Shown: piece by piece, positions 6,983 to 38,592 of the stretch
Numbering within the stretch: position 1 is the first letter of the stretch
Layout of the letters: each line of letters begins with the position of its first letter
IMG/VR virus record: IMGVR_UViG_3300042731_002679
Span: 4,304-68,303 of that record
Strand: one strand, 5' to 3'
Length of the DNA stretch: 64,000 nucleotides
Origin: a virus
Translations under genes and position numbers: made by a program
The notes under the pieces: model-generated
Databases searched by the model: none
Told to the model about the DNA's origin: nothing
What the model saw: only the letters and a program-made list of their open reading frames with translations

Positions 6983-7023
6983 CAAGCACTGGGAAATCAA
7001 GACAACTTGCGCAAGGTGCGGGT

Positions 7024-7776: not shown

Positions 7777-7785
7777 GGAACCATC

Positions 7786-22049: not shown

Positions 22050-22091
22050 AAAGCCCCACGGCCTCAGACGAGACCGTAGGGCTTTCTTTCT
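22050..22091 (+). terminator. terminator-like hairpin
   Basis: AAAGCCC-CACGG/CCGT-AGGGCTTT then CTTTCT. Confidence 0.5.
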
Positions 22092-22119
22092 GCGCCGGCA
22101 CCAACCCCTGACCAACACC

Positions 22120-22446
22120 ATGCCACGAGACGACTGGGCAAAAGCCCGAAGAAAAGACGCCTCCAAGCAAGCAACCGCAGACGCGGCCAAGAAACGTCAT
22201 GGCCAACGCCACGCCGCAAGGAAAAGAATCACCAAGTCTCTCGGACCACACACCAAACTCTGGTTCGGGAAACACAAAGGCCGCCCACTTTCCCAAATCC
22301 CCCGGCCTTACCTGGCTTGGCTGTCTCAACAGCCGGCCGCCTCTTCCTGGCGACTACAAATCCTCCAGAACTTCCTGCTGGAGACCTATCTCCCACAAAC
22401 CTCCGGACAACCGGAAGAAAGGAACTCAAGAGTAAGCCCCTGTTAG
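22120..22446 (+). CDS. DUF3820-like protein
   Basis: WFGKHKGRPLSQIPRPYLAWL motif. Confidence 0.65.
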   Translation: MPRDDWAKARRKDASKQATADAAKKRHGQRHAARKRITKSLGPHTKLWFGKHKGRPLSQIPRPYLAWLSQQPAASSWRLQILQNFLLETYLPQTSGQPEERNSRVSPC

Positions 22447-24379: not shown

Positions 24380-24385
24380 TCAACC

Positions 24386-24420
24386 TACCCCCTGCCCTAC
24401 CTTGGGCAGGGGGTTTGCTT
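24386..24420 (+). terminator. intrinsic terminator
   Basis: ACCCCCTGCCC/GGGCAGGGGGT stem then TTGCTT. Confidence 0.6.
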
Positions 24421-24480
24421 ATGCGCTTTTCTGGAGTGTGCAAGCAAACCCCCTGTATTCTCGATTATTGTCAATTCTGT

Positions 24481-24508
24481 TTGACATACCCCCCTGCCGT
24501 GGTAGAAT
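24481..24508 (+). promoter_or_regulatory. strong sigma70-like early promoter
   Basis: TTGACA-N16-TAGAAT. Confidence 0.75.
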
Positions 24509-24679
24509 AGGGGTATCGTCGAACATGAGTGAGGCGGTTGTGAATTTTCAAGCGGCGCGCGGTTGTCCCGTCTGCCGCTTGCTCCCTTGGCAGCGATGCT
24601 AAGGTTTTCTTGTGCGCCGTGTTCGCGGGTTTGCGAACGGTCAAGCGGCGCGCGGCCCCGTAGCTTGGAGGGTGGAATC

Positions 24680-24940
24680 ATGGCAGTTCTCAGACTGGTG
24701 CGGGTGTATTTCCGGCCGGAGGATCATCCGGCGGTGCGCCCGGGGATCATCGCCAAGACCTTGCGCGAATTTCCAGCGGCCGATGGTCTGGAGTTGCACG
24801 ACGACTCGGACGTTGTGCGGATCATTGACCGGAAGGGTCGCGCGGTTTCCTGCGATGGCGAGCAGTATGTCGCGGTAATCAACCGGCGGCACGAATCGGA
24901 CGGTCGCGGGTGTTTCGTGCCCGCGGCGCTGTACGGGTGA
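24680..24940 (+). CDS. hypothetical protein
   Basis: Preceded by motif and GGAGG. Confidence 0.7.
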   Translation: MAVLRLVRVYFRPEDHPAVRPGIIAKTLREFPAADGLELHDDSDVVRIIDRKGRAVSCDGEQYVAVINRRHESDGRGCFVPAALYG

Positions 24941-24951
24941 AGGGAGGCGTC

Positions 24952-25179
24952 ATGGACTTTCCGATCTACAACCAGATTGTCGAATTGCCCGATGGGCGCT
25001 GGCAGGCGTTTTTGCAGTCGGCGTCGGGCGCAGTCCACCAGAAGCGCTTCCGGTTGCTGGAAGAGGCGCAAGCGTGGGCGAAACACCGGGCTTTGACCGC
25101 TCTGCCGCGGGAAAACTGGGTGAGCGAGATCATTTCCCTGGACGCCGCGCTCTTCTGCCGCGGCTACCTGATCTTCTAG
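24952..25179 (+). CDS. hypothetical protein
   Basis: GGGAGG SD. Confidence 0.65.
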   Translation: MDFPIYNQIVELPDGRWQAFLQSASGAVHQKRFRLLEEAQAWAKHRALTALPRENWVSEIISLDAALFCRGYLIF

Positions 25180-25243
25180 CGCGGCCCGCGTGTGGCCGCG
25201 TTTCTGTTTCCTGTCCCCCGTAGCTCTATTGGAGGGTGTAGCG

Positions 25244-25429
25244 ATGAAACGCTGGAATGTGATGCAGTTTCGGGCTTCGGCGATGTCCTGGTTCTGGGTG
25301 GATCAGGTCGAAGCCCGCAGCCCGCGTGAAGCGGCGAGGATCGCCCGCGCGAAGCATCCGGGCCTGGGGCTGCTCGTGAAAGTGGTGGCGACCGATCTGG
25401 TGGCCGAGCCGGTTCGGGTGGCTGGCTGA
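25244..25429 (+). CDS. hypothetical protein
   Basis: Motif plus GGAGG; VEARSPREAA. Confidence 0.65.
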   Translation: MKRWNVMQFRASAMSWFWVDQVEARSPREAARIARAKHPGLGLLVKVVATDLVAEPVRVAG

Positions 25430-25529
25430 CGACCTGGCCGTGAGGGGCTCGGCATCGCGCTGAGCCCCGATCGGGCTGGCCGTTGGTGCGGCTGGTTGCT
25501 GTTTTCCTGTAGCCCTGGAGGATGAAGTT

Positions 25530-25712
25530 ATGGCGAAATTGGACCTGGACGAAATCATGGCGGCGTGCGAATCGGGCGACAACATGGGCTTTTGCACGGC
25601 CTGCGGGGCCGAAGCCTACGGCGTGGAACCGGACGCCCGCCGTTACGAGTGCGAAGAGTGCGGCGCCCGGGCGGTGTACGGGGCCGAAGAGTTGCTGATC
25701 GGTTGCATCTGA
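25530..25712 (+). CDS. small zinc-ribbon protein
   Basis: GFCTACG...VEPDA..YECEECG..AVYGAE. Confidence 0.8.
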   Translation: MAKLDLDEIMAACESGDNMGFCTACGAEAYGVEPDARRYECEECGARAVYGAEELLIGCI

Positions 25713-25827
25713 CGTGCGACCCGGCCGTGAGGGCTTCGCTTTGCCGAACGGTGAAGCGGAGCCCGACCGGGCGGGCCGGCGGCGTGCTGGCCCTCGGTGT
25801 TTCCCGTAGCAAGGGAGGATGTTCTCT

Positions 25828-26166
25828 ATGACACGCAAGGCCAAGGTTCTCTACGTGTTCCTGGCCGACGATGAGTGGGGCAACTTCGCGATGGAGCAGG
25901 TTGCCCAGGTCGCGTTCCACAAGTATCCGTGGCTGGACGCCGTGCATGTGTACAAGCACGGCGGCTGGTGGCTGATGTGGGACCGCGATCTAAACATCGT
26001 CGGTACGGCGAACGACATGGCCCGGATGAGCGAAGCCGCGAACGAGTTCTGGCGTGCCTATCCCGACTACGAGATTGTGGCGACCGTTCGCCGCGATCAG
26101 CCTGGTTGGGAGTGGCCCGAACTGAACCGTCGAGCGGAGCGCGAACGAGAGGGGGTGGCCGCATGA
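25828..26166 (+). CDS. hypothetical protein
   Basis: Motif plus GGAGG. Confidence 0.7.
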   Translation: MTRKAKVLYVFLADDEWGNFAMEQVAQVAFHKYPWLDAVHVYKHGGWWLMWDRDLNIVGTANDMARMSEAANEFWRAYPDYEIVATVRRDQPGWEWPELNRRAEREREGVAA

Positions 26167-26378
26167 GAGTCGCCCTCGAAGTGAACGTAATGCGGCTTCG
26201 GTTCGACCCGGTGATGAATCGCCCGACGCTGTTCGTGTGCCTCACCCTCATCTGGTGGACGTTCTGGTTCCAGTGGTGGGACACGGAGCGATGCCGGGAC
26301 AAGCGGATTCTTTGGCGCAGTTGGGACCGGCTCATGTGCGCCACTGGAGGGGTGCATGTTCATCGAAGCAGCGTATGA
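26163..26378 (+). CDS. Trp-rich hypothetical protein
   Basis: ATGA overlap with upstream gene. Confidence 0.45.
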   Translation: MRVALEVNVMRLRFDPVMNRPTLFVCLTLIWWTFWFQWWDTERCRDKRILWRSWDRLMCATGGVHVHRSSV

Positions 26379-26592
26379 ACGACCGGACCCGCGCGCCGAG
26401 TGCGCTGCCCGCATGGCCCGCAACGGGTCGCATCTGGGCAAGCCGGCGAACAACGAGTCGGCCGATTACTACTGCGTGGACGGGAAGGTGTGGCTGATTA
26501 CGCCGGAGCGATCCGTGCTGTTGGGCTGCTACTTCCTGTTTATGAACGAAGTGCGGCTCGGGATTCGAGCCGTCTCGCCGCCTGGAGACTGA
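26356..26592 (+). CDS. hypothetical protein
   Basis: GGAGG SD. Confidence 0.6.
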   Translation: MFIEAAYERPDPRAECAARMARNGSHLGKPANNESADYYCVDGKVWLITPERSVLLGCYFLFMNEVRLGIRAVSPPGD

Positions 26593-26695
26593 GACCTGCG
26601 CTGCCGACCCGGCGTGCCGCTCCGGTCCCCCGACCGAGGCGGCGCAGCGGGCCGATGGGCGGTTCGCGTGTCACCTGTAGCGAAAGGATGAATCC

Positions 26696-26911
26696 ATGCA
26701 AGCGTACCTCAAGCCCGGCAGCGGGTACTGGGACATCACGGTTCTCGGTATCGGCGGGCACTTCCGGCGGGTCGGCGAGAACCGGATGCCGGTTCACGAC
26801 ATCGAGGTGATCCCGAAGTGGCGCGGCGTAGACCGCAAGGCGATCACCGACGACGGCCGAAAGGTGGCTTTCCAGTCTTACCTGCTGGAGGAGGTTGCCG
26901 ATGAGCATTGA
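26696..26911 (+). CDS. hypothetical protein
   Basis: Motif plus AAGGA. Confidence 0.7.
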   Translation: MQAYLKPGSGYWDITVLGIGGHFRRVGENRMPVHDIEVIPKWRGVDRKAITDDGRKVAFQSYLLEEVADEH

Positions 26912-27143
26912 CTGGGAGCAGATCGAACAGGAGGACCGGCTGTGGCCGTGGTTGGCCGATGGGTCGATGGGCGATGAAACCTGCGATCCATCGTTCGACG
27001 ACCTCTACGGCGATCCCGAGCCTTACTACTTCTGCGATTCGTGCGACTGCGGCTTGTCGGACGATGAAGCGGAGGGCGACAAGTGCCCCGAGTGCGGGGC
27101 GGTGTTCGACAACGAGAACCCGCTGGTGACGAACGGAGGATGA
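26901..27143 (+). CDS. acidic zinc-ribbon protein
   Basis: GGAGGT SD; CDSC...CPECG. Confidence 0.65.
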   Translation: MSIDWEQIEQEDRLWPWLADGSMGDETCDPSFDDLYGDPEPYYFCDSCDCGLSDDEAEGDKCPECGAVFDNENPLVTNGG

Positions 27144-27144
27144 A

Positions 27145-27312
27145 ATGATCTACTTTTGCATCCGTGGAGTTCGATGCAATCCCAAAACCCGATGCAACTG
27201 GATTCCGGCCAGTTGCCTGGAGCGATCTGCGCGATGGACTCACTACGCCCATTCCTACAGGGCGTGGACCTATGCCCCATGCGAAACGACACGAGCGGCG
27301 ATCTTCGGATAG
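27145..27312 (+). CDS. small hypothetical protein (55 aa)
   Basis: Read manually: GGAGG SD, ATG 27145 to TAG immediately before a GACCCGG element. Confidence 0.5.
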   Translation: MIYFCIRGVRCNPKTRCNWIPASCLERSARWTHYAHSYRAWTYAPCETTRAAIFG

Positions 27313-27436
27313 CCGACCCGGCCCCGAGGCGTCTTAGAACGATCTAAGGCGCCGAGGGAGCGGGCCGACCCGCGAACCGGGCCACCGGGTTGACAGGTGG
27401 CAACGATCGAACGCCCTATGGGCAGGAGACGCAGCG

Positions 27437-27742
27437 ATGGCACGGTATCGGATGGACGACGGCAGCGTGGTGGACACCGACAGGGCCACGCAGTCGTGGG
27501 AGGAGGAGACCGATTGGGACGGTAGGAACCACATCAGCCGGGCGACCGGCTCGCAGTGGGACCACGAGACCCTGTATCGGTCCCGTAAGGGGCGGTACTA
27601 CGTCGAGCACACCTCCCAGTGGCAGGGCAGCCGGCCGCACGTCGAGTGGCTCAGCCCCGAAGCGGCGGCCCGGTGGCTGCTGCTGATGGACGAGGAACTG
27701 CCGGAGGACCTGGCGCAGTACGCCGACGAGATCATCGAGTAG
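27437..27742 (+). CDS. hypothetical phage protein
   Basis: AGGAG SD; ETLYRSRKGRYY...SPEAAARW. Confidence 0.75.
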   Translation: MARYRMDDGSVVDTDRATQSWEEETDWDGRNHISRATGSQWDHETLYRSRKGRYYVEHTSQWQGSRPHVEWLSPEAAARWLLLMDEELPEDLAQYADEIIE

Positions 27743-27835
27743 CGCGACCCGGCCCCGACCCCTCCGGTGTGAGCGGAGGGGAAGGGAGCGGGCCGACTGA
27801 GAGCCCGCGTTCCTGTAGCAAGGGAGGATGAGCGA

Positions 27836-28594
27836 ATGGAAACGAAGACGCGGCGGGTCCGCATCGTGCAAGACTGCGATGCCGACAGCCCGCGGACCTG
27901 GGACAACATGGGCGTCATGGCCTGCTGGCACAGCCGGTACACCCTTGGCGACGAACAGCCGAAGGTGGACTCCGGCGAGTGGCTGCGCGACCTGGCTGTC
28001 GAAGCCTGCCCCCGGCTCGGTGAAATCATCGAGTATTGGGAGAACGAGGGCTGGGACTGGTTGCAGTCGAAGCTCGGCACGTACAGTGAGGCCGACCAAG
28101 CGATCATTCCCCACCTCGACGACCTCATCGGTCGTGTGCTGGTCAAGCATTTCGTGATCCTGCCGCTGTACCTGTACGATCACAGTGGCATCACGATGAA
28201 CGTGGGCGGGTTTTCCTGCCCGTGGGACAGTGGCCAAGTGGGCTACATCGTGTGTTCGCTCTCGAAAGCCCTGGAGTGCTGGCTTCTCTCGGAGGGCGAT
28301 TGGGATACCGAGGTCGAGTACACCGATGGGCCGGTCACTCTGCGGGAAGGGACCACGCGCAACCTCAAGTGCGAAGTGGAGACCTACGCCCAGTTCCTCG
28401 AAGGCAACGTGTACGGGTTCATCGTGGAAGAGTGCGAAGAGTGCGACTGCTGCGGTCACGCCGAGTGGGAGCACGTCGATTCGTGCTTCGGCTTCTACGG
28501 CTACGACCCCGAAGAGAACGGCATGGCGGATCATCTCGACGATGATCTGCTGGAGATGGCCAAGGACGCGGAACCCGAGTATCGGAGATACTGA
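27836..28594 (+). CDS. acidic hypothetical phage protein
   Basis: SPRTWDN, LYLYDHSGIT, CPWDSGQVG, DSCFGFYG. Confidence 0.8.
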   Translation: METKTRRVRIVQDCDADSPRTWDNMGVMACWHSRYTLGDEQPKVDSGEWLRDLAVEACPRLGEIIEYWENEGWDWLQSKLGTYSEADQAIIPHLDDLIGRVLVKHFVILPLYLYDHSGITMNVGGFSCPWDSGQVGYIVCSLSKALECWLLSEGDWDTEVEYTDGPVTLREGTTRNLKCEVETYAQFLEGNVYGFIVEECEECDCCGHAEWEHVDSCFGFYGYDPEENGMADHLDDDLLEMAKDAEPEYRRY

Positions 28595-28597
28595 CCC

Positions 28598-28993
28598 ATG
28601 AAGCAGAACCCACCCAACGCCCGGTTCTGGGTGTACCTCAACGGCAGCCCGGTCAAGCTGACGCTTCGGCCGGGCGCGGAGTTGCACCACTACTGGGGTG
28701 AGCCGAACGACGAGGGCGGCTGGTCGAGCGCGGCGCATCGCTGGGAGTACGTGGTCAACGACCCGGACTTCCCGCCGCATGTGCTGCGAGAGTGTACCAT
28801 TGACGGCCGCGATTGCGACGGTCGTTTGACGCAACACTACGACTCGGTATGCTCGGTGGAAGACCTGGCGGCCCACGTTGTCGAGGGGGCCGAGTACAAG
28901 GACTTTCACGACGGGCGGGAGATTTGCTACCCGAAGTGGGAGCGGACGACCGCTTGGAACCGCGACGAGTTCGCGGAAGCGATGGGGTACTAA
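28598..28993 (+). CDS. hypothetical protein
   Basis: RDCDG motif, C-terminal RDEFAEAMGY. Confidence 0.75.
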   Translation: MKQNPPNARFWVYLNGSPVKLTLRPGAELHHYWGEPNDEGGWSSAAHRWEYVVNDPDFPPHVLRECTIDGRDCDGRLTQHYDSVCSVEDLAAHVVEGAEYKDFHDGREICYPKWERTTAWNRDEFAEAMGY

Positions 28994-29033
28994 CGGGCCG
29001 CGTGGCCCTTTCTTTCCTGTAGCATGAGGACCA

Positions 29034-29222
29034 ATGCAAATGGACAACCAATGGTGTGTGCTGGTCAAGAACGACCCTATCGTGTCGGTCGGCCAGTCTG
29101 TCGCCGGTCCCTTTGACTCGGCTGGCAAAGCAGAAGGGTGGATCGCGGAGGACTTGGACATCAACAATGATGTGCGGGACAACTACCTCATTCTGCCTTT
29201 CTTCGATACGCGGGACGACTGA
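29034..29222 (+). CDS. small hypothetical protein
   Basis: Motif plus GAGGA; GPFDS...A..W. Confidence 0.65.
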   Translation: MQMDNQWCVLVKNDPIVSVGQSVAGPFDSAGKAEGWIAEDLDINNDVRDNYLILPFFDTRDD

Positions 29223-29260
29223 TCGTTACTACTTTTCCTGTAGCATGAGGAGGATGAAGA

Positions 29261-29854
29261 ATGAGCAAAGTGACCGAGGCGATTGATCGGCTCGCAGAAA
29301 CCCCGAGCCGACCGGCCGACGAGTTCTGGACTCACGAGCAGGCCCAGGCTTCGATCAACGAGTTCTGGGAGGTGCGAACCGACAAGTCGATGAGCGAGGA
29401 TTCGCGGGCCGAGCGGTGCGCGGAGATCATCGCTAGCTCGAAGCCGATTCGGAACGTGTCAGAGAACGACAGCGGCAACACGGTGGTCCGCTCGAACGCC
29501 GATTCGCTGGGGGTATCCCACGAGCGGTACGTGTTCGACTTCGACGACGACTTTCGAGCGGCCGGGTGGTTGCAGTTCGACACGAACCAGGACGCCTGGT
29601 ACTTCGGCGTGTGGGTCAATCCCAAGACCTTTCAGACATTGACCTACGCGGAGGGCGACGTGACGCTGGTATTGTGCCGCGATGCCGAGCACTACAACGC
29701 CGAGATTCGTGATGCGTGCGATTTCTACGGCGAGGGGTTTCAATTCTTGGAGTGCAACATGGAAGGTCTGCAAAGCGTGCTGCTGGGAACGCATGACCGA
29801 GACGCTTCGGTTGTGGCCCATCGTCAGCAGCGGGAGAAGTTCCTGGTTTCGTAA
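29261..29854 (+). CDS. hypothetical protein
   Basis: Motif plus GGAGG; WLQFDTNQDAWYFGVWVNP...YAEGD. Confidence 0.75.
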   Translation: MSKVTEAIDRLAETPSRPADEFWTHEQAQASINEFWEVRTDKSMSEDSRAERCAEIIASSKPIRNVSENDSGNTVVRSNADSLGVSHERYVFDFDDDFRAAGWLQFDTNQDAWYFGVWVNPKTFQTLTYAEGDVTLVLCRDAEHYNAEIRDACDFYGEGFQFLECNMEGLQSVLLGTHDRDASVVAHRQQREKFLVS

Positions 29855-29937
29855 CACCCCACCACGAACCCGCCCTCGCAAGGGGGCGGGCTGTTGTGCG
29901 GTGTTTCTTCTCACCTCGTAATACGAAGGAGGATGTG

Positions 29938-30312
29938 ATGCACAGACAAGCCGTTAAGCGATTGCGAGACCAGATTCAAGCCATGTTTGACGCGGCCGAC
30001 CTTGGGGGCTACCACGTTACTGTTGGCAACGCAACGTATTGCGACAACAACGCGACGTTCAAGGTGGAGTTCGCCGAGAAGGCCGCCGATGGGACTGTGT
30101 TGACAAAGGACGCGATCGCCTTCAAGGAGTTGTGTAGCCTGCACGGGCTGTCCGCAGACGACCTGGGGAGGGACTTCACCTGCCAGGGAAGGACCTTCAA
30201 GATTGCCGGTCTGAAACCTCGGGCGACGAAACGCCCGATTCTTTGCGACGGCGACGACGGCAAGCAATACAGCTTTCCGGCAAAGGCCGTCATCATGGGT
30301 CTTAAGAAATGA
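29938..30312 (+). CDS. hypothetical protein
   Basis: AAGGAGG SD. Confidence 0.75.
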   Translation: MHRQAVKRLRDQIQAMFDAADLGGYHVTVGNATYCDNNATFKVEFAEKAADGTVLTKDAIAFKELCSLHGLSADDLGRDFTCQGRTFKIAGLKPRATKRPILCDGDDGKQYSFPAKAVIMGLKK

Positions 30313-30941
30313 AATCCATTCTCAGCCTATGCGACCTGTCGGGCTCGTGGAGCTTGCCATACGTCGAGGCGGGCTACGAGGTCGTGCAGGTGGATGTGCT
30401 GCATCCTTCAGGGTGCAGGAAGGTGGCCCCCAACGTGTGGCGTGTCGGGTGTGATCTTCTCGACGTTACGCAACAGACATGGTATCGGGGTTTACCATTT
30501 CATGGAGTTCTCGCAGCGCCGCCGTGTACTTGCTTCTGTCGGCCGGCGGCTCGATGGTGGGCACGGCAGGATGCCGAGGGGAAAACGGATCGAGACGTGG
30601 CGCTTATCCGTCGATGCCTCGACTTGTGCCAAACTGCCACCGCATGGTGGGCACTGGAAAATCCACCGGGTCGGGCACCGAAACTCATACCGGAACTAGG
30701 TCGTCCAGCCTGGCAATTTCACCCGTGGCACTACGGAGACCCGTGGCGCAAGCAGACCTACATTTGGGGCACGGCAGTCAAACCTCCCCCGACCGTAACT
30801 ACTGAACCGCCGCGGCTAACGTACCGGACGCCTAATGGGAGACTGCAAGGACGCATTTCCAGAATGTCCTCTTCATGGCAAAACCAACGCAGCGAGACTC
30901 CGGCAGGATTCGCCCGCGCGTTTTGTCTTGCAAACCCTTAG
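30309..30941 (+). CDS. short phage-type DNA cytosine-C5 methyltransferase
   Basis: ILSLCD.SG.WS (motif I variant), AAPPCT (catalytic PC), WALENP, RS.TP.GFA. Confidence 0.8.
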   Translation: MKSILSLCDLSGSWSLPYVEAGYEVVQVDVLHPSGCRKVAPNVWRVGCDLLDVTQQTWYRGLPFHGVLAAPPCTCFCRPAARWWARQDAEGKTDRDVALIRRCLDLCQTATAWWALENPPGRAPKLIPELGRPAWQFHPWHYGDPWRKQTYIWGTAVKPPPTVTTEPPRLTYRTPNGRLQGRISRMSSSWQNQRSETPAGFARAFCLANP

Positions 30942-30970
30942 TCCCTAACCACAGCAAGGAGACCTTGCCC

Positions 30971-31585
30971 ATGAGTGAAACCACAGTGACCCTTCCCAGT
31001 CACGCCGAGATCGAAGCCCTGATCGAAGCGGCCGGCGATCGCATCAACGGACTGACGTTCGTTGAAGAGTATGTGATCGAAGACTACCCGATCAGCTTCC
31101 GCGACCGCGGCCGATGCTACATGGCCGTGGAGTTCAAGTCGAAGAAGGGCTGGCGTACCGTGAAGCGGACGACCAACCGGCGCGGGACGTGGTGCAAGCC
31201 GAAGTCCTGCACCTACGACGGGCTGCCGATCGCCGTCGTCACCGGGGAGGACATCGAGAAGGAAGCCGCCTGGCTGCGTGTCAGCAGCCACGGCCAAGCG
31301 GCGATCTACCTGCAAGCGGCCAACGGGGACTGCGAGGACGTGATCCTGCGGCGCCCCGATGGGATTCCTGGCATGCAGCCCCGGCGCGAGCCGCATCGGT
31401 ATTCGATGAAGGTCGAGCGGTTTACGTTCGGCGACGACCACAAGGAGTCCGAGGTCGAACACCACGAGTTCCCGGCCGACCCGCCGGAAGTGTGCGATGC
31501 CTACGACGTGTGGGTCGATGGCCTCACGCGGCTGGTCAAGCTGGTGAAGCAGAAGATGCCGCAGGCGGTGTCGAGCACCGCCTGA
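30971..31585 (+). CDS. hypothetical protein
   Basis: AAGGAG SD; DYP...WCKPK..TY. Confidence 0.75.
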   Translation: MSETTVTLPSHAEIEALIEAAGDRINGLTFVEEYVIEDYPISFRDRGRCYMAVEFKSKKGWRTVKRTTNRRGTWCKPKSCTYDGLPIAVVTGEDIEKEAAWLRVSSHGQAAIYLQAANGDCEDVILRRPDGIPGMQPRREPHRYSMKVERFTFGDDHKESEVEHHEFPADPPEVCDAYDVWVDGLTRLVKLVKQKMPQAVSSTA

Positions 31586-31586
31586 G

Positions 31587-31614
31587 TTGACATACCCCCT
31601 TGCGGGTGTATAAA
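31587..31614 (+). promoter_or_regulatory. sigma70-like promoter of the candidate sRNA
   Basis: TTGACA-N16-TATAAA; shares TTGACATACCCCC with the promoter at 24481. Confidence 0.7.
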
Positions 31615-31620
31615 GCAGAC

Positions 31621-31700
31621 AACTCCTTTGCTACGGGGAGTGGCGGCGGTCGGGCTTGACACCCCCTTGCCGGCCTTGGCCGGGGCCGCCGCCTTTTTCT
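31621..31700 (+). ncRNA. candidate trans-acting antisense sRNA
   Basis: Lies between the promoter and terminator stem GGCGGCGGTC/GGCCGCCGCC-TTTTTCT; 5' hairpin is the reverse complement of the RBS motif. Confidence 0.65.
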
Positions 31701-31739
31701 TCCCTCCCCAGAAGCGGGGGCATCTTGCCTATCTTAACC

Positions 31740-32021
31740 CTAAAGTGGCTGTTTTTCGTCCGATGTACTTTGGGTGGCTCGGGAATCGCCTTGACCCTCA
31801 TCCCGAGTTTTCCCCTGCGGTAGCTTGCGAGCTTTTCGCAAGGCGTCGACGTTCCCCTGCCTGCCGGCCATCGCAGGGTTCTTCCCGAGCCGGTACGGGT
31901 AGAGGGGGCACAAACCAGACTGGGTTCCGTCACACGGGCACAGCTTGACCTCGTTGGACGAGCCACAGCAGCAGTCGAGGCACTTGGCACGGATCGCCTT
32001 GATGGGAGTCAGTCGCTTCAT
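31740..32021 (-). CDS. small Cys-rich phage protein, lone reverse-strand gene
   Basis: CAGGAG SD; PIKAIRAKCLDCCCG..NEVKLCP...CPLYPYRLG. Confidence 0.75.
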   Translation of the reverse strand: MKRLTPIKAIRAKCLDCCCGSSNEVKLCPCDGTQSGLCPLYPYRLGKNPAMAGRQGNVDALRKARKLPQGKTRDEGQGDSRATQSTSDEKQPL

Positions 32022-32124
32022 CGGGTAGTTCTCCTGGGGCAACGGGAAAGTGGACTGCCATAGGGTAACGCACCCGCCGTTTTGGGTACAAGATCAGTTT
32101 TCTCTTTTCAGTGGAGGATGAGCG

Positions 32125-32640
32125 ATGATTACCATTCGCAACGCCAACAGTTCCTACGGCATGGCCGTGGACTTCACCGCCGAAGACCTGCCCTCGGCCG
32201 TGGCTGAAATGCAGGACACGATCCGCATGTGCGGTGAGGAGTTCGCCGACGTGGTCGTGACCGAGGATGACTACGAGATCGTGGAGTCGCACGAAGCGAA
32301 GCACACACCGGGACCGTGGAAAGCCGAACACGACAACTACGGCGACGAAATTTGGTACGGCGGCAACGCTTGCGGGATGTGGACAATCCGCGGTCCTAAT
32401 GGTTGCTACATGGCATCCTGCGACAACGGGAGCGAAGCCGAACGCGCTCGATGCGAAGCTGACGCCCGGCTGATCGCGGCCGCGCCGGAGTTGCTGGCCG
32501 TCTTGCGAGAGTTTGTCCCCCCAGGATCGGCAGCCCACGACCCCACCTGCCCCCGCGTCCGGCACGGGGATTACGAGTCGTGCAACTGCCGCGCTGGCCG
32601 TGCCCGCGCCGCCATCGCCAAGGCCGAGGGCAACCACTAA
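32125..32640 (+). CDS. mosaic hypothetical protein
   Basis: HTPGPW...DARLIAAAPELL...ARAAIAKA motif common in phage ORFs. Confidence 0.75.
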   Translation: MITIRNANSSYGMAVDFTAEDLPSAVAEMQDTIRMCGEEFADVVVTEDDYEIVESHEAKHTPGPWKAEHDNYGDEIWYGGNACGMWTIRGPNGCYMASCDNGSEAERARCEADARLIAAAPELLAVLREFVPPGSAAHDPTCPRVRHGDYESCNCRAGRARAAIAKAEGNH

Positions 32641-32661
32641 CCAACCACCCGGAGAAGTAGA

Positions 32662-32946
32662 ATGGAAGCAAACACTCCACCAACCACGATGGACCGGACC
32701 ATGCCATTCGACAAGAAGAGCCGCAAGATGTGGCTCACCCCGGAAGCCTACATGGGGCTTCAAACCGCAGCGATCCGGCAGGCAACACTACGCCATGCCA
32801 TCACGCTGGCAGAGAACACCGTAACCAACTTCGAGCGGCTATCGAAATGCCGCGGCAGCATCAACCCCGACGAAGCGCTGGACTTGCTGCGGTCCATCGT
32901 CGCTCGCTTCGCCGACATTCTGGAAGGAGGTGAGGAGGATGAGTGA
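32662..32946 (+). CDS. hypothetical protein
   Basis: GGAG SD. Confidence 0.6.
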   Translation: MEANTPPTTMDRTMPFDKKSRKMWLTPEAYMGLQTAAIRQATLRHAITLAENTVTNFERLSKCRGSINPDEALDLLRSIVARFADILEGGEEDE

Positions 32947-33157
32947 GATTCGCTTGTATGGGCACACCACCGACGGCGGCGCACAGTATTTGTGCGATCA
33001 GTTCGTCGAGTGCCCCAACGGAGAACGGGAGGGAGTATTTCAGGGCTCCAACATTATCGTCAGGCTGGACGGCGAGCCGGAGGTCATGCTTCGGGGTGAA
33101 TATGCCTCCGCATCTTTAGACAGGAGGATGAACCTTGCGACTGATCGGTCAGGCTAA
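32939..33157 (+). CDS. hypothetical protein
   Basis: GGAGGT SD; TDGGAQYLC. Confidence 0.6.
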   Translation: MSEIRLYGHTTDGGAQYLCDQFVECPNGEREGVFQGSNIIVRLDGEPEVMLRGEYASASLDRRMNLATDRSG

Positions 33158-34169
33158 GGGTGGCTTCTACGCAGCCGCCCCGGAGGCGATCGCCGAAGTC
33201 CTCACAAGACTCAGGCGACCGCCCGACGACCAACCCTGTACCCTCATCGACCCGTGTGCCGGCGAAGCTGCCGCCCTGTTGCAGCTTGCCGAAGGGCTCA
33301 ACGCCGAACCCTACGGGATCGAACTCTCAGAAGACCGGGCTTCGGAGGTGGCCCGCTTGCTCCCCGAGGGGCAGTTCATCGCCCCCGCCGACCTCCTGGG
33401 CTGCGTGATCCAGTCCAGGTGCTTCTCGTTCGTGTGGTGTAATCCCCCCTACGATTACGCCACCGGGAGTCTCGGCCGAGTCGAGTGGCATTTTCTGGAC
33501 AAGTGCCTGCCGCTGCTGGTCGACCACGGGATCATGGCCCTGGCCTGCCCCGAGTCGGTCGCCGACAAGCACGAGACTCAGGTGTGGTTCGAGACCTACT
33601 GCGAGGACGTGTCGTGCTTCCCCTACCCCGAGGACGTTCGCCACTTCAACGAAATGGTGATCGTGGGACGGAAGCGGGAAGCGGTCAACCCGCGACCGCA
33701 GACGTGGAACGCCCGCCGAGAGTGGCGGGAACGGCACCTCGTCTACGATCTTCCACCAGGCAGACGGCCCGAGACGTTCATCAAGAACGAACCGACCGAC
33801 GCCGAAGTGATCCGCATGCTGGCGGATAGCCCGCTGCAACCGAAGCCGATCCGTAACATCGACCGCCGCCCCCGGCCACCGATGAGTCCTGGCGAAGGAC
33901 ACCAGGCCATGCTGCTGGCGTCGGGGTTCCTCAGCGGTCTGATCTGCCCACCCGATGAACCGCCCCATGTGATCCGGGGCCTTGCCAGAAAGGAGAAGTT
34001 CCTACGGGAGCAAACCGAAGAGGAAAACAAGGATGGTAGCGTGACCACGCGAACGGTCTACAGTGAGAAGATCAACCTCGTTGTTCGCACGGTAGACTCG
34101 TTCGGAAACCTCGTAACCCTTGGGGAGGATGATGATGAAGCGAGTGGACACACTGAAGACGGGGGATAA
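33135..34169 (+). CDS. N6A/N4C DNA methyltransferase (DUF6094-like)
   Basis: GFY, DPCAGEA, YGIEL, NPPY. Confidence 0.85.
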   Translation: MRLIGQAKGGFYAAAPEAIAEVLTRLRRPPDDQPCTLIDPCAGEAAALLQLAEGLNAEPYGIELSEDRASEVARLLPEGQFIAPADLLGCVIQSRCFSFVWCNPPYDYATGSLGRVEWHFLDKCLPLLVDHGIMALACPESVADKHETQVWFETYCEDVSCFPYPEDVRHFNEMVIVGRKREAVNPRPQTWNARREWRERHLVYDLPPGRRPETFIKNEPTDAEVIRMLADSPLQPKPIRNIDRRPRPPMSPGEGHQAMLLASGFLSGLICPPDEPPHVIRGLARKEKFLREQTEEENKDGSVTTRTVYSEKINLVVRTVDSFGNLVTLGEDDDEASGHTEDGG

Positions 34170-34359
34170 GGTAGACCTCGACTCCTGCCCGTTTCTCCAT
34201 GACGAACCGGCAGCCGAGTTCGAGTATGCCGTAGTTGGGGAGATTCGCCCAGAAGGCCCCGTGCTTGTCGTGGACTACGACAATCTTGGGTTGTGCTGCG
34301 CGTATCACCCTGAGCAATTACTGGAGGTGGCCGATGATAGCAGCACCACCGATGAGTGA
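34135..34359 (+). CDS. small hypothetical protein
   Basis: GGAGG SD. Confidence 0.55.
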   Translation: MKRVDTLKTGDKVDLDSCPFLHDEPAAEFEYAVVGEIRPEGPVLVVDYDNLGLCCAYHPEQLLEVADDSSTTDE

Positions 34360-34948
34360 ACCGGAGACGGACAACACCCTCGCCAGGCTCAGGGCCACGT
34401 CGGAGAACTCCCGGTTCACCGTCAAGGTCGAGTCGGCCGCGTGGCATCACAAGTATTACTACGAACCCCGGCGGCTGCTGACGCTCTCCTGCGTCGGCTC
34501 GGACACCGCCATCAAAGCCATCCGGGCCATGTTGTTGGACCCGGAGATTCCCGTGCGGCTCGACTTCTGGGACGACGACGCCGACCGCACCACCATGCTC
34601 GCCAAGGCGTCCGAGAACGGAGGCCGGAAGCTGTGCAAGTACGCCACCCGGGTCGCCCGGCTGGCACGCGGGGCAACCCACTTGGTTGCCACAGCGAAGA
34701 TGGATGGTCTACTGCGTGAACTCTCCGACGATGCCCTCTGGCTGGCGTTCAGCGGAGACGACTTCGATACCCCGGTCCTGCGTGGCTGGGTGCCGTGGCT
34801 TCGCAAGAAGCTGGAAGAGAACGACCTGTTGCAATCCTGCGATGGGTACAACCAATCCGTCGGCGTCCTGCTGGCCAGCAGCGCTCAACTCGATGAGCTT
34901 GTGTCCCGCGGGGTGAAGACGGGGAACCTCAAGATGGAGGATGAGTGA
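34334..34948 (+). CDS. hypothetical protein of the MTase-helicase module
   Basis: GGAGGT SD; lies between MTase and helicase; TP.L..W.PWL. Confidence 0.7.
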   Translation: MIAAPPMSEPETDNTLARLRATSENSRFTVKVESAAWHHKYYYEPRRLLTLSCVGSDTAIKAIRAMLLDPEIPVRLDFWDDDADRTTMLAKASENGGRKLCKYATRVARLARGATHLVATAKMDGLLRELSDDALWLAFSGDDFDTPVLRGWVPWLRKKLEENDLLQSCDGYNQSVGVLLASSAQLDELVSRGVKTGNLKMEDE

Positions 34949-35230
34949 ATGGCAACACGAAGCGCTGACGGATACCAACTTTTCTACGGGGCGTTCGTCT
35001 ACATCCGGGTTGGCGGCGAGTATCCCCCTGGCAGGTATCGCGCAAGTTCCATGAAGATCGCGTCGATCAACCCAAACCGACGCAAGAGCCTGCGTTTAGA
35101 GCCGCCCCCGGATTCTGGCAGGACAAAGGGCTGCTGGCGATCACCCGACGAGGTGTACCGCAACGGAGACGTTGCCAGGGGGCTGAGGCCCAATGGTTCA
35201 CAGCGACAGGAGGATGCCCATGCAAGCTAA
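34949..35230 (+). CDS. hypothetical protein
   Basis: GGAGG SD. Confidence 0.5.
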   Translation: MATRSADGYQLFYGAFVYIRVGGEYPPGRYRASSMKIASINPNRRKSLRLEPPPDSGRTKGCWRSPDEVYRNGDVARGLRPNGSQRQEDAHAS

Positions 35231-37442
35231 GACACTCGACGACTACCTCGCCCGCTACGGCGGTCTCATCGCCGCCAAGACGGCCGAGGCGTTCGTGCCA
35301 CTCCACGTCCCCAGCCGGGACAAACCCTGGCACGTCGAACTGGAACGTGCCCCCTTCGGCGCCCAAGCCCACGCCATGACGGCCATCGCCAAGGCGTGGG
35401 ACAAGCGGAAAAGCATCATGCTGATCGCCGAGATGGGGACCGGCAAGACGCTCATGGGAATTGCCGCCGCCCACATGCACGCTCGGGGCAAGCCCTACCG
35501 GGCCATCGTCATGGCACCGGATCACCTGCCCAAGAAGTGGTGCCGGGAAATCCAAGAGACGATTCCCGGGGCGACGACCAGGATCATCAAGACCTGGAAG
35601 GATGTCGTCCGCATGACAACCGACCCGCCCACCGGGTCCGAGTGGGTTGTGATCGGCCGCAACAAGGCCAAGCTGGGGGCCAAGTGGAAGGCCGCCTACT
35701 GGAAGGCCAAGGCGTGCTTCAAGTGGGAAGGAACCCGCTACCAGCCCGAGACTCTGCGTTGCCCGTCCTGCGGTGCCCCGCTCATCAAGAAGATCGAGGA
35801 AGATGGACGGACATCGTTTTGGGAAGTCGCCGAACTGGACAAGACCAAGCGGGCTTGCCGGGACTGCGGCGGCGCCCTCTGGCAGTACCACGGCGAACTG
35901 CGGCGCTGGGCTCCGGCGCAGTACATCCACAAGCACCGGAAGAACTACTTCGACTACTTCGTGCTTGATGAGTGCCACGAGGAGAAGGGGGAGAACACTG
36001 CCCAGGGCCTTGCCGCCGGAAGCCTGGCCGCTGCCTGCAAGCGGGTGATCGCCCTGACCGGGACGCTCATCGGAGGGTACGCCCACCACATCCGGCCCCT
36101 GCTGTTCCGCCTCGCCCCGCACTCCCTGGTCGAAGAAGGACTGGGATGGAAGGACTCGACGGAGTTTAATCGGCGCTATGGCCGCCTGGACACGATCATC
36201 ACCCAGAAGGACGGTACCGTGGTAAGCAACCGGCAGTCCCGTGGGTCCAAACGGAACAAGGACGAGAAGGTACGGCCCGGGGTGATGCCCACGCTCTACG
36301 GCCGACACCTGATCGACAACACCGTGTTCCTGTCGCTGTCCGAGGTGGCCGCCGGTCTGCCGGGGCTGCACGAGGACGCCATCGCCGTGCCCTTGCCGCC
36401 CGACCTGGAAGGGGCCTACAAGGTGGTCGAGGACGATCTCAAGGAAGAGGTCAAGCGGATGATGCGGAAGCGAAACACCCGCCTGCTGGGGACGATGCTG
36501 CAAACCCTGCTGGCTTACCCAGATTACCCATACGACTGGAAGGAGATCGGCTACTACGACAAGGACGAGGACTCGGGCACGATGCGGTGGGTCGGCGTGA
36601 CCACGCCCCTGAACTTCCCCAAGTCCCGAAGCTACGATCCGAAGGAAATGAAGCTGCTGGAAATGGTGAAGGAAGCCAAGGCCAACGGGCATCAAACCTG
36701 GGTGTACGTCCAGTTCACCGACAAGCGGCCCGTGCCCGACCGGCTGCTGGCGATGTTCGAGAAGCACGGCATCAAGGCGAAGTGGCTCAAGTCGTCCGTC
36801 CAGTTGGCCAAGCGGGAGGACTGGATCACCGAACACGGCAAGGACGTGGACGTGGTGATCTCCCACCCGAAGCTGGTGGAGACCGGGCTGGACCTGTTCG
36901 ACAAGGGAGGCGGCCACAACTTCTCCACGCTGATCTTCTACGAGACCGGCTACGCCCTGTTCACCCTCCGGCAGGCGGCACGCCGGGCATGGAGAATCGG
37001 GCAGCGGCGCAACTGCAAGACCTACTACCTCTACTACCAGAACACCATGCAGGAACGGGCGATGGAACTGATGGGCAAGAAGCTCACCGCCTCGCTCGCC
37101 CTGGAAGGACAGTTCTCCGAGGAAGGGCTGGCCGCCATGACCGAAGACTCCGGCTCGGTGGAAATGGAATTGGCCAAGTCGCTGTCGAACAACCTGGAGT
37201 TCGGAGAGACCCAGCGGGTGTGGGAGAAGGCGGGCCAGGCAGCCAGGAGAAGCAACGTCACCCCGCAGTCTCTACGCAAGGCCAGGGAAAGGCTGCGCAA
37301 ACGAAGAAAGTCGTTGACACAAGCCAACGGCAATGGACAATTACCACCACCTGCACCACCGGGGGACGACGAGGAACTCTCTGCCGCCGATCGCCTTCGC
37401 CGCCGACTGAAGCGCCGCAAAGTCAACTGCTTCGCTTCCTAA
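35220..37442 (+). CDS. superfamily 2 (SNF2-like) helicase with Zn-ribbon insert
   Basis: EMGTGKT, DECH, LTGT, TGLDL, QAARRAWRIGQ; CPSCG...CRDCG insert. Confidence 0.9.
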   Translation: MQAKTLDDYLARYGGLIAAKTAEAFVPLHVPSRDKPWHVELERAPFGAQAHAMTAIAKAWDKRKSIMLIAEMGTGKTLMGIAAAHMHARGKPYRAIVMAPDHLPKKWCREIQETIPGATTRIIKTWKDVVRMTTDPPTGSEWVVIGRNKAKLGAKWKAAYWKAKACFKWEGTRYQPETLRCPSCGAPLIKKIEEDGRTSFWEVAELDKTKRACRDCGGALWQYHGELRRWAPAQYIHKHRKNYFDYFVLDECHEEKGENTAQGLAAGSLAAACKRVIALTGTLIGGYAHHIRPLLFRLAPHSLVEEGLGWKDSTEFNRRYGRLDTIITQKDGTVVSNRQSRGSKRNKDEKVRPGVMPTLYGRHLIDNTVFLSLSEVAAGLPGLHEDAIAVPLPPDLEGAYKVVEDDLKEEVKRMMRKRNTRLLGTMLQTLLAYPDYPYDWKEIGYYDKDEDSGTMRWVGVTTPLNFPKSRSYDPKEMKLLEMVKEAKANGHQTWVYVQFTDKRPVPDRLLAMFEKHGIKAKWLKSSVQLAKREDWITEHGKDVDVVISHPKLVETGLDLFDKGGGHNFSTLIFYETGYALFTLRQAARRAWRIGQRRNCKTYYLYYQNTMQERAMELMGKKLTASLALEGQFSEEGLAAMTEDSGSVEMELAKSLSNNLEFGETQRVWEKAGQAARRSNVTPQSLRKARERLRKRRKSLTQANGNGQLPPPAPPGDDEELSAADRLRRRLKRRKVNCFAS
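37314..37341 (+). promoter_or_regulatory. possible promoter for the recombinase unit
   Basis: TTGACA-N16-GACAAT inside the helicase low-complexity tail. Confidence 0.45.
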
Positions 37443-37461
37443 CACACGGAGGACCAGGACC

Positions 37462-37719
37462 ATGCCATACGCAAGCGTCGACCCGGAAATACTCACCCCG
37501 AACCAGACCGTGTACTTCGACCCAGCCTGCCCCCACCGTGAATGGAGAAAGCAACGGCTGTGGCTCGTGGAGGACTACAAGGCGAAGAACATCGTCAAAC
37601 TCTACATCGAACGGATCAACCTGCCCTACGTTCTCGGGCTCCGCAAGCGGCTTCGCAAGTTCGTGACCGTCGTTGTGGACACCCGAGTCTGCCAACTCTT
37701 GCAAAAGGAGGATGAGTAG
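37462..37719 (+). CDS. hypothetical protein
   Basis: GGAGG/AGGA SD. Confidence 0.6.
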   Translation: MPYASVDPEILTPNQTVYFDPACPHREWRKQRLWLVEDYKAKNIVKLYIERINLPYVLGLRKRLRKFVTVVVDTRVCQLLQKEDE

Positions 37720-38592
37720 ATGCCCCAAATCTACGGCTACGCACGAGCAAGCACGAAGAAGCAAGAGGACTCGCCGACCGTGCAGGCCGACAAGATCGTG
37801 GCCAGGGCCACGCAACTGATCGAGGACGACCCCACGCTGTCGCCCCTGGACCCCGAAGAACACATCGCCTCCGAACACAAGTCGGCCGACCGAATCTCAT
37901 GGGAAGACCGACCGGCCTTTCAGTCGCTCATGCGGACGATCGAAGAAGGAGACGTGCTGATCGTCACCCACTACGATCGCCTCGACCGCAACCCGCTACG
38001 GTTCATCGCCTGCCTTGCCGAGCTACAAAGGAAGAAGATCAGGCTGATCCTGCTGAACTGCGACTTTATGATGCTCAACAAGGAGTTCGATCTGGACGAT
38101 GCCCAGTGCGTGTTCCTCGCCTTCCAGTGGGCCTTGTTTCTGAAGATGTGGTCCGACTACAACAGGCAGCGCCTCCTCGACATGAACGTCTGGCTGAAAA
38201 AACAAGGGCGGTGCCGAGGGCGAGTGCCGTTCGGCATGGTGGCCTACAAGAAAACGGACGGCAAATACTACCTCCGCTGGGACAAGCAGCAATGCACCTA
38301 CATGCTGGAACTCTACAACCGAATCCAGTGTGGCGAGACGTTCATTGAAATCGGACACGACTGGCACCAACGCGGGCTCACTCGCCAGCGAGTTCCCGGG
38401 GGTGAACCGGAGCCCTGGGTGGCACGCAACTCCCGCTGCGACCGGAACAACCCGAAGTGGCAGCCCCACGCCCACCGGATAAAGGACGCCTACAAGCGAG
38501 CCGCCAAGATGATCGAAGAAGAGGGCATGGTCGGCTGCGTGCCCTACGATCCTACCGTGGGAGTTGAGTACGCATGTTCTGCAACTCCTTGA
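37720..38592 (+). CDS. serine recombinase (resolvase/integrase family)
   Basis: YGYARAST catalytic Ser, DRP.F, GDVLIV..YDRL.R, G..PFG. Confidence 0.9.
   Translation: MPQIYGYARASTKKQEDSPTVQADKIVARATQLIEDDPTLSPLDPEEHIASEHKSADRISWEDRPAFQSLMRTIEEGDVLIVTHYDRLDRNPLRFIACLAELQRKKIRLILLNCDFMMLNKEFDLDDAQCVFLAFQWALFLKMWSDYNRQRLLDMNVWLKKQGRCRGRVPFGMVAYKKTDGKYYLRWDKQQCTYMLELYNRIQCGETFIEIGHDWHQRGLTRQRVPGGEPEPWVARNSRCDRNNPKWQPHAHRIKDAYKRAAKMIEEEGMVGCVPYDPTVGVEYACSATP

Follow-up and report, generated by a model that had tools for sequence, protein, structure and literature searches.

A short motif that precedes the start codons of nine genes in an uncultured phage also occurs once in the opposite direction, in a 155-nt gap between two convergent genes, where it is enclosed by a promoter-like site and a terminator. 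The phage is represented by a 68,303-base IMG/VR virus record (IMGVR_UViG_3300042731_002679; from a wetland, classed as linear and with a CheckV completeness of 74%), of which bases 4304–68303 were analysed. This stretch of 64,000 nucleotides is here called the window, and positions are counted from its first base. An initial annotation of the segment 31587–31700 had proposed that it encodes a small antisense RNA, acting in trans and silencing the translation of about nine dispersed early genes by pairing with the hairpins over their ribosome binding sites. The observation behind this proposal holds and is not a product of chance. The mechanism put forward is plausible and coherently framed, with one genome and a set of predictions as its basis, and the interpretation as a whole is only partly supported.

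The motif marks nine gene starts in one direction

The motif CCYGTAGC was found in ten copies in the window, nine on the plus strand and one on the minus strand (31630–31637), compared with 2.78 copies expected, and ten copies were reached in 0 of 100 shuffles. All nine plus-strand copies sit 14–19 nt ahead of a start codon with a Shine–Dalgarno sequence in between, and all ten exact copies lie outside coding sequence. The gene set used here consists of calls based on open reading frames (ORFs) and has 18 plus-strand genes between 23417 and 31585, named by number from g1 to gene 18; the motif precedes half of these 18 genes of the 23.4–31.6 kb array, with all nine copies within 23.4–29.3 kb and pointing in a single direction. 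The nine array genes lacking the motif are mostly coupled to the preceding gene, yet g7, g11 and g16 follow gaps and still have no motif. Calling the motif genes 'early', as the initial annotation does, is an assumption.

Together with the Shine–Dalgarno sequence, the motif makes up a start-site element of the form YCCY-GUAGC-N-GGAG. In local minimum-energy folds of eight of the nine sites, YCCY pairs with the Shine–Dalgarno purines and GUAGC is placed in the loop, with energies of −5.7 to −9.1 kcal/mol; the site at 29016 is the exception, having a different local fold. As measured from the printed sequences, the distance between the motif and the hairpin upstream of it is variable (about 3–18 nt), and since the distance to the start codon is kept at 14–19 nt, the motif appears to belong to the translation start region and not to these hairpins. 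No conserved second promoter element was seen upstream of the motif copies. When one core mismatch was allowed, 119 matches were obtained genome-wide, 24 of them with a Shine–Dalgarno-like word nearby; beyond the ten exact copies, the sole one-mismatch copy before a supported gene start is CCCGTTGC at 32046–32039 on the minus strand. The start region of the plus-strand gene at 32125 (32097–32124) has GGAGGATGAGCGA and a T-rich lead in common with the motif site at 27812, and carries CTTTTCAG where the CCYGTAGC core would be.

Five gaps (25427–25532, 25710–25830, 26590–26698, 27310–27439 and 27740–27838) hold, in addition, a common structured element. It opens immediately behind the stop codon with the box CGACCCGGCC. 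Its outer stem (CCGGCC/GGGCCG) is conserved, its inner hairpin shows compensatory changes (10 of 22 predicted pairs), and in four of the five cases it ends in the start-site motif. The covariance model of this element scores 61–99 bits and recovers the five gaps together with four weaker plus-strand motif sites.

The inverted copy lies between a promoter-like site and a predicted terminator

The promoter-like TTGACA-N16-TATAAA site, the anti-motif and the T-tract listed in the initial annotation are all found where they had been placed, and the 5' end of the presumed transcript (31623–31639), which includes the inverted copy, is indeed the reverse complement of the start-site motif. The promoter-like site, here called P2, has a twin, P1, at the head of the motif array. 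The 17-mer TTGACATACCCCCYTGC, comprising the −35 box and the spacer, is found in exact form in the window only at 24481 (P1) and 31587 (P2), with no third site even when three mismatches are allowed. The likeness between P1 and P2 is limited to the 27 nt from −35 to −10 (81%), with differing flanks, which fits a shared functional constraint and not a recent block duplication. Six sites of the form TTGAC(A/G)-N16–18-TAnnn(T/A) were found, at 6508 (minus strand), 6606, 21811, 23248, 24481 and 31587 (all plus strand), every one of them before a gene block, and from its sequence P2 appears to be a credible member of the phage's promoter set. Several of these six sites have a CCCC...GGGG dyad in the spacer.

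The sequence ACCCCCYTGC has exactly three copies, one in P1 (24488–24497), one in P2 (31594–31603) and one in the terminator hairpin of the candidate RNA (31661–31670); this box may be a binding site for a regulator. As a separate observation, the leader behind P1 (24509–24680, about 165 nt) contains a 24-codon ORF and a direct repeat of AAGCGGCGCGCGG at 24550 and 24643, and its terminator-like hairpin might attenuate transcription before the first motif gene is reached.

Downstream of P2 a hairpin begins 7–8 nt after the −10 box, and a transcript from P2 would accordingly have its 5' end at the base of this hairpin and its 3' end about 78 nt further on. When folded, the RNA of 31618–31700 forms the 5' hairpin and the terminator hairpin at −41.7 kcal/mol (z −2.89), and an equally good fold was found in 2 of 200 shuffles. 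The 10-bp GC stem of the initial annotation is present, although not as a simple stem but as the base of a 52-nt branched hairpin; the predicted terminator would serve plus-strand transcripts of either kind, the P2 RNA as well as those of the gene 18 operon. The RNA had also been described as devoid of ORFs. Two ORFs with TTG starts do begin inside it (31628–31948, 106 aa; 31656–31823, 55 aa), but they have no Shine–Dalgarno sequence and run antisense to a conserved zinc-ribbon-like gene, and their GC content at third codon positions (GC3) is 0.60 and 0.68, as compared with 0.70–0.92 for most called genes, but with 0.69 for g1 and 0.60 for g17. They are probably not genes. Within 31587–31700, neither a variant nor a supported rearrangement was seen in the contigs of the single wetland-metagenome DNA run found to hold the stretch, and an Rfam search of 31500–31800 at E up to 5 gave only four weak, unrelated matches far below gathering score and no phage family.

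The candidate RNA is complementary to the nine start sites

The 17-mer at 31623–31639, searched with up to three mismatches, has three matches in the window, namely itself and its reverse complements at 25801–25817 (two mismatches) and 27810–27826 (three mismatches); 0.20 matches would be expected, and three were reached in 0 of 100 shuffles. Gap-free pairing of the RNA with the nine start sites gives 20, 17, 14, 12, 12, 11, 11, 9 and 9 pairs. The longest pairings of the initial annotation were thereby reproduced, with 17 of 17 nt and the reported two and three G·U pairs at 25801–25817 and 27810–27826, respectively, the first of these being part of the 20-pair run, and with 13 perfect pairs at 23394–23406 that one more G·U pair extends to 23407; at each of the six other sites, 9–12 contiguous pairs are formed. 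The variable core base Y faces a G in the RNA, and the differences in the two long targets are, as had been claimed, all compatible with wobble pairing. The sequence UGCUAC is placed in the loop of the 5' hairpin, and five of its bases are complementary to the target loop at all nine sites, whereas the full six-base complementarity described earlier is found at six sites only, one of these by way of a G·U pair. The complementarity to the target start regions exceeds chance.

Raw duplex energies were −26.6 to −37.1 kcal/mol at the motif sites versus −15.5 to −24.6 kcal/mol at 14 other start sites. To include the costs of opening, net cofold energies were determined as the minimum free energy of the dimer minus those of the two monomers. 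Ranking 70 start regions in this manner, we found that the top seven were all motif sites and that eight of the nine motif sites were among the top ten; the site at 26674 gained nothing. In a control with shuffled 21-nt 5' heads, these averaged −5.7 kcal/mol (sd 1.6) versus −8.09 observed over the nine sites. Some shuffled heads do as well as the real one because shuffled heads are unstructured and pyrimidine-rich, and thermodynamics alone therefore does not carry the case for an antisense RNA, which would have to rest on loop–loop contact. When the inverted copy was set against the nine sites' reverse complements as a 'universal' antisense sequence, it ranked second of ten by mean and first by worst case, a weak hint of fit.

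Table 1. Window positions of the start sites, of the candidate RNA with its promoter, and of neighbouring features
Feature	Position	Strand	Remarks
Motif start site g1 (CCCGTAGC-aaagggag-ATG 23417)	23394–23419	+	14 contiguous pairs with the RNA: 13 Watson–Crick and 1 G·U (23394–23407)
Motif start site g2 (ATG 24680)	24657–24682	+	9 contiguous pairs
Motif start site g4 (ATG 25244)	25217–25246	+	9 contiguous pairs
Motif start site g5 (ATG 25530)	25506–25532	+	11 contiguous pairs
Motif start site g6 (ATG 25828)	25803–25830	+	20 contiguous pairs, 5 G·U (25798–25817); GGAG covered
Motif start site g8 (ATG 26696)	26674–26698	+	11 contiguous pairs; net cofold gain 0
Motif start site g12 (ATG 27836)	27812–27838	+	17 contiguous pairs, 3 G·U (27810–27826); GGAG covered
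Motif start site g14 (ATG 29040)	29016–29042	+	12 contiguous pairs
Motif start site g15 (ATG 29261)	29237–29263	+	12 contiguous pairs
P1, TTGACA-N16-TAGAAT	24481–24508	+	11/12 in scan, TG before −10; heads the motif array; paralogue of P2
Terminator-like hairpin in the P1 leader, with TTTTCTT	24585–24604	+	About 70–98 nt after the inferred start
Gene 18, 204 aa, conserved, unnamed	30971–31585	+	Last gene of the plus-strand array; stop 1 nt before P2
P2, sigma70-like promoter	31587–31614	+	TTGACA 31587–31592, N16, TATAAA 31609–31614
Predicted RNA of ~78 nt	31621–31698	+	Start inferred 7–8 nt after −10, end at T-tract
5' hairpin, 7 pairs (2 G·U), loop UGCUAC	31622–31641	+	Holds the anti-motif CTCCTTTGCTACGGGGA (31623–31639)
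Branched GC-rich hairpin (31642–31693, 10-pair GC base) and TTTTT (31694–31698)	31642–31698	+	Predicted intrinsic terminator
Second TTGACA..CCCCCTTGC box	31656–31670	+	Inside the terminator hairpin; no −10 after it
Cys-rich zinc-ribbon-like gene, 93 aa	31740–32021	−	Convergent; widespread unnamed family
One-mismatch motif CCCGTTGC	32039–32046	−	17 nt before ATG of the minus-strand gene, AGGAG in between

Neighbouring genes and the minus strand

Gene 18, which ends just ahead of P2, has 17 homologues including itself, the best other one at 55%. Within it, at 31256–31501, the contigs of the DNA run contain a second strain (depth about 6, compared with 16) with 11 substitutions and a replaced stretch of 59 nt. 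An 18-nt perfect inverted repeat joins the coding sequence of g8 (26759–26776) to the conserved C-terminal part of gene 18 (31475–31492), and by rough estimate much exceeds the length that chance would produce in 9.5 kb.

The convergent gene on the other side of the gap belongs to a family of small proteins widespread in phages and metagenomes, with 533 homologues at E up to 0.001, the N-terminal 50 residues being about 70–79% identical in the closest; its zinc-ribbon-like protein of 93 residues had neither a Pfam nor a PHROGs match, and the AlphaFold model was poor (mean pLDDT 61.4). Read on the minus strand, a one-mismatch motif, AGGAG and ATG (32046–32019) are followed by the gene, a hairpin and the perfect motif with GGAG, which is the same order as in the plus-strand array. 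Because the start of this adjoining gene carries the motif with one mismatch, the inverted copy may be a leftover start site. It keeps all eight core bases, while the functional start of the neighbouring gene keeps seven of eight. After the perfect copy, the minus strand has no ATG, GTG or TTG at 14–19 nt; the nearest ATG (31593), separated from the GGAG by 29 nt that include a small hairpin, begins a frame of 30 codons lying antisense to gene 18. We also considered the whole stretch 31700–31623 as an inverted copy of the element found in the five gaps, and dropped this view when the covariance model missed the region at E up to 10; the two have only 17–18 nt of motif in common.

Related loci and content of the window

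A megablast search of phage sequences in GenBank with 22500–32500 gave no match, and none was obtained in viral scans with the single proteins of gene 18, of the gene at 32125 or of a 652-aa protein from the structural region. Alignment searches returned 35 viral loci (best 36%), 80 metagenome loci (best 39%) and one locus in a Planctomycetota metagenome-assembled genome (34%) for gene 18, and 80 viral loci for the zinc-ribbon-like protein. A contig of 70,173 nt encodes two of the window's proteins in identical form. Among 120 fetched loci the core followed by GGAG was found only in the window's own four loci, and among 80 further loci one (L132) had a single such match and none had two. In viral contigs, the exact 18-mer pattern of the RNA had no match, the 18-mer start-site pattern had one, which is a chance occurrence in coding sequence of a contig with 36% GC, and the promoter 17-mer had ten, none with the motif or with similar flanks. 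In 401 genomes of the phylum of the metagenome-assembled genome, matches were seen in 99, with at most four in one genome, these four being on different contigs; the matches did not cluster and were fewer than for a control pattern. Two entries searched individually showed no clustering either.

The gene content marks the window as that of a tailed phage, judging by the predicted proteins. The left end (1–6463, minus strand) encodes glycosyltransferases and an FkbM-type methyltransferase, beside two ParB-like genes (6967–8562, plus strand); these may reflect modification of the host surface and plasmid-like maintenance. Pfam and PHROGs scans identified on the plus strand a block with the two ParB-like proteins, a YqaJ exonuclease, RecT, a replication initiator, DnaB and RusA. 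The array of small unnamed genes follows at 23.4–31.6 kb, a further plus-strand block contains methyltransferases, an SNF2-type helicase and a small serine recombinase, and the structural genes occupy the minus strand from 38.5 kb onward. The phage encodes two predicted DNA methyltransferases. The whole window gave no tRNA and no Rfam family at gathering score, and neither an RNA polymerase nor a sigma factor was found among 105 scanned proteins. An ORF at 22000–22446 (plus strand), in a stretch left empty by the crude gene caller and downstream of the promoter-like site at 21811, matches the Pfam family QSregVF_b at 26.1 bits (cutoff 22).

The same Pfam and PHROGs scans named no repressor and gave no candidate RNA-binding protein, most of the small proteins remaining unnamed. 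That the RNA might serve as an immunity repressor had been suggested in the initial annotation on the sole basis that no CI-like protein was recognised; small proteins without a name are evidence neither for nor against such a role.

An antisense RNA weighed against other explanations

Four features co-occur at the inverted copy, namely the promoter twin, an inferred transcript start at the foot of a hairpin, a loop complementary to the target loops and a strong terminator. As this combination is hardly due to chance, we tentatively hold the locus to encode an antisense RNA acting in trans, a reading that we judge to be quite possible while short of probable. P2 would then probably drive a discrete plus-strand RNA of about 78 nt (31621–31698), the UGCUAC loop of which may contact the GUAGC loops of the nine start-site hairpins, with pairing subsequently spreading into the 5' arm of the start-site hairpin. 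At two or three sites it would spread over the Shine–Dalgarno sequence and block the entry of ribosomes; where only CCYGUAGC pairs, the Shine–Dalgarno sequence could instead be released. The sign of the effect may thus differ between genes, because pairing elsewhere covers the pyrimidine arm and the loop and could free the Shine–Dalgarno sequence. Since P1 and P2 have the −35 box and spacer in common, the RNA and its targets would be produced jointly, and the RNA could serve as feedback on, or shut-off of, its own gene block, an RNA then doing what RegA of phage T4 does as a protein. Taken in this full form, with one small phage RNA from a promoter twin reading the ribosome-binding-site hairpin loop of nine genes and tuning or shutting off their block as an RNA counterpart of T4 RegA, the proposal is rather doubtful.

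Several findings weigh against an antisense RNA. The −10 box of P2 ends in A and has no usual final T, and P2 is absent from the promoter scan list because the scan requires T at that position. The terminator would be required at the end of the gene 18 operon in any case, no other sigma70-like promoter was found upstream of the plus-strand operon 32125–38592, and the inverted copy is located directly downstream of a real minus-strand gene with a one-mismatch motif at its start. As for the pairing, the differences compatible with wobble are equally expected whenever a pyrimidine-rich arm faces a purine-rich arm. Pairing had been expected to extend over the GGAG Shine–Dalgarno sequence, which holds for ungapped pairing at two sites and in part at a third, but not at the others. 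The net gains are modest (−7.1 to −12.6 kcal/mol at eight sites, and 0 at 26674), and 7 of 100 shuffled 5' heads matched the observed mean binding. A look-up of sequencing runs holding the stretch returned the wetland-metagenome DNA run and no RNA run. Finally, the scans of viral contigs, metagenomes and genomes, including the 401 genomes, revealed no motif-carrying relative that could show conservation or covariation.

The strongest alternative is that the motif works in cis, as a weak hairpin occluding the Shine–Dalgarno sequence, or through a protein or the ribosome, with the inverted copy as a leftover start site and with P2 and the terminator as a promoter–attenuator for the operon 32125–38592, in which case the short RNA would be a terminated leader having no action in trans. 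We consider this a serious competitor, albeit on the unlikely side. As no other promoter was found, P2 may serve 32125–38592 through a leaky terminator, as P1 would serve its genes through the leader hairpin, and P1 too has its terminator-like hairpin within about 100 nt. The minus-strand order of features mirrors that of the plus-strand array around a gene that its 533 homologues show to be real, and the net binding of the RNA barely beats that of shuffled heads. Precedents exist as well: the mycobacteriophages of Cluster K display the same pattern of many one-way copies at starts and a single reversed copy away from any start, with no RNA role reported (PMC3203893), and T4 RegA represses about 30 mRNAs, binding at or just 5' of the AUG (PMC3014915). 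A leftover should decay, however, yet it is the inverted copy that has the intact core and GGAG, and the gene's own site that has the mismatch. Neither do the covariance results, with nothing but the motif in common between the inverted region and the five-gap element, suggest a displaced start-site cassette. Transcription of the downstream operon from P2 would moreover have to get through a GC stem of 10 pairs followed by U5 and, beyond it, through 280 nt lying antisense to an expressed gene, the hairpin starting right at the inferred transcript start is left unexplained, and the protein scans offer no RNA-binding candidate. Antitermination of the Q type at P1 and P2, for which the shared spacer and the short terminated leaders would speak, was kept only within this cis or protein explanation, as no −10-like pause element was seen after P2.

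A second alternative places the function on the minus strand. The inverted copy could serve as start site for the 30-codon ORF that opens at ATG 31593, where a hairpin with a GNRA cap would bridge the 29 nt after the GGAG, or else could act as an element within the 3' portion of the zinc-ribbon mRNA, so that the P2 RNA would be its perfectly complementary cis-antisense partner, as in type I toxin–antitoxin systems or lambda OOP/cII, and the pairing with nine sites a side effect. That the inverted copy might be a minus-strand ribosome binding site had been raised in the initial annotation as a challenge to its own proposal; its location downstream of a real gene with a motif-like start agrees in part with this, but no canonical start is found at the usual distance. 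In line with a minus-strand role, a hairpin follows the GGAG, ATG 31593 is in frame with the ORF 31501–31662, and the hairpin of the minus-strand gene has no T-tract after it, so that its transcripts should run on through the motif; cis-antisense RNAs of 68–77 nt with terminator hairpins are, furthermore, described for P22 and lambda in a review of the subject (PMC12197685). The spacing of 29 nt between GGAG and ATG is nonetheless unlike the nine real sites, the ORF overlaps the conserved C-terminus of gene 18 in antisense and owes its high GC3 to the frame of that gene, and the 30-codon peptide is, by reading, only moderately hydrophobic. We find this explanation distinctly unlikely. Least likely of all is that the motif is a DNA site, which a phage factor might bind, modify or use as a promoter element, with the inverted copy as one more such site. 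In favour of this, all ten exact copies lie outside coding sequence, the phage has two predicted DNA methyltransferases and ACCCCCYTGC shows that repeated DNA boxes exist at P1 and P2. Against it, nine of ten copies point one way at 14–19 nt from starts with a hairpin distance varying by about 3–18 nt, the motif is no palindrome, upstream of it a conserved second promoter element is missing, and the 105 scanned proteins include neither RNA polymerase nor sigma factor.

Comparison with known systems

With regard to size and design, the candidate RNA is like the phage antisense RNAs P1/P7 c4, P22 sar and lambda OOP, which are about 70–80 nt long with a terminator hairpin and have their complementary bases in loops; c4 and sar block translation around the ribosome binding site (PMC12197685). 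Each of these acts on one mRNA, whereas nine dispersed start sites would share the target role here. Unlike what would be expected of the immunity RNAs P1 c4 and P4 CI, there was no Rfam match at gathering score over the window. The c4 RNA has two sites. In the plasmid pairs CopA/CopT and RNA I/RNA II, which are encoded in cis and fully complementary, hairpin loops are complementary to each other. The loops at this locus are complementary as well, and first contact could thus be loop–loop, although the pairing is partial and in trans, and by reading neither loop has a YUNR U-turn motif.

A protein counterpart is found in phage T4, where about 30 mRNAs are bound by RegA at the AUG or immediately 5' of it and RegB cuts GGAG in early intergenic regions (PMC3014915). 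The likeness is that of one phage factor acting on the start regions of many early mRNAs; RegA and RegB are, however, proteins with loose, unstructured targets that are A/U-rich or GGAG, as opposed to the proposed RNA with an 8-nt core in a hairpin loop. The five intergenic regions that share a structured element ending in the motif resemble the PeSL cassettes of T4-type phages, described as repeated composite intergenic stem-loop elements flanking small variable genes (PMC2839356, PMC4122927). PeSLs contain an early promoter, in contrast to the five gaps, inside which no sigma70-like promoter was found.

The closest analogue of the motif is the start-associated sequence (SAS) of the Cluster K mycobacteriophages. 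It has a 13-bp consensus, GGGATAGGAGCCC, with up to two deviations. Between 11 and 19 copies run one way through the non-structural half of the genome, each lying a few bases ahead of a start codon, and four phages have a single reversed SAS away from gene starts; whether it is read by an 'RNA or protein', of phage or host origin, was left undecided by Pope et al. (PMC3203893). In papers of 2024 and 2025 its role is still called undefined (PMC11373665, PMC12699233). In the right 41 kb of phage Anaya we confirmed 16 forward SAS copies and one reversed copy, the latter at 59870–59882 of the record (39871–39883 in the extracted locus, L208), within a 385-nt gap between gp96 and gp97 and with TTGACC 9 nt before it; a simple scan of its surroundings gave no clear promoter–terminator pair. 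Both systems thus have a short asymmetric motif that includes or abuts the Shine–Dalgarno sequence near starts, running in one direction in the non-structural region, and a single reversed copy. The sequences differ (GGGATAGGAGCCC versus CCYGTAGC-N-GGAG), for which reason we regard the present system as an analogue and not a member of the Cluster K SAS, and phage and host are unrelated. Here, furthermore, the motif is 5' of the Shine–Dalgarno sequence and able to pair with it, and the reversed copy is placed between a clear promoter-like site and a terminator.

A limited full-text search for a phage small RNA aimed at a motif common to many ribosome binding sites gave no paper with such a case in its title or abstract, which is no proof of absence. 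Known phage antisense RNAs each hit one message, and the start motifs of Cluster K have been without an assigned function since 2011; the locus described here combines both pictures. Should the antisense reading be true, a single RNA and a single short tag would allow the phage to coordinate a set of genes that have nothing else in common, which would be a compact design for multi-gene translational control. It would also give a testable answer to the purpose of start-associated sequences, including the unexplained single reversed copies of Cluster K, and hence a simple hypothesis for the phages of that cluster that can be cultivated. If the RNA is instead inactive, the locus still adds, from an unrelated phage, a second and independent system of motifs associated with gene starts.

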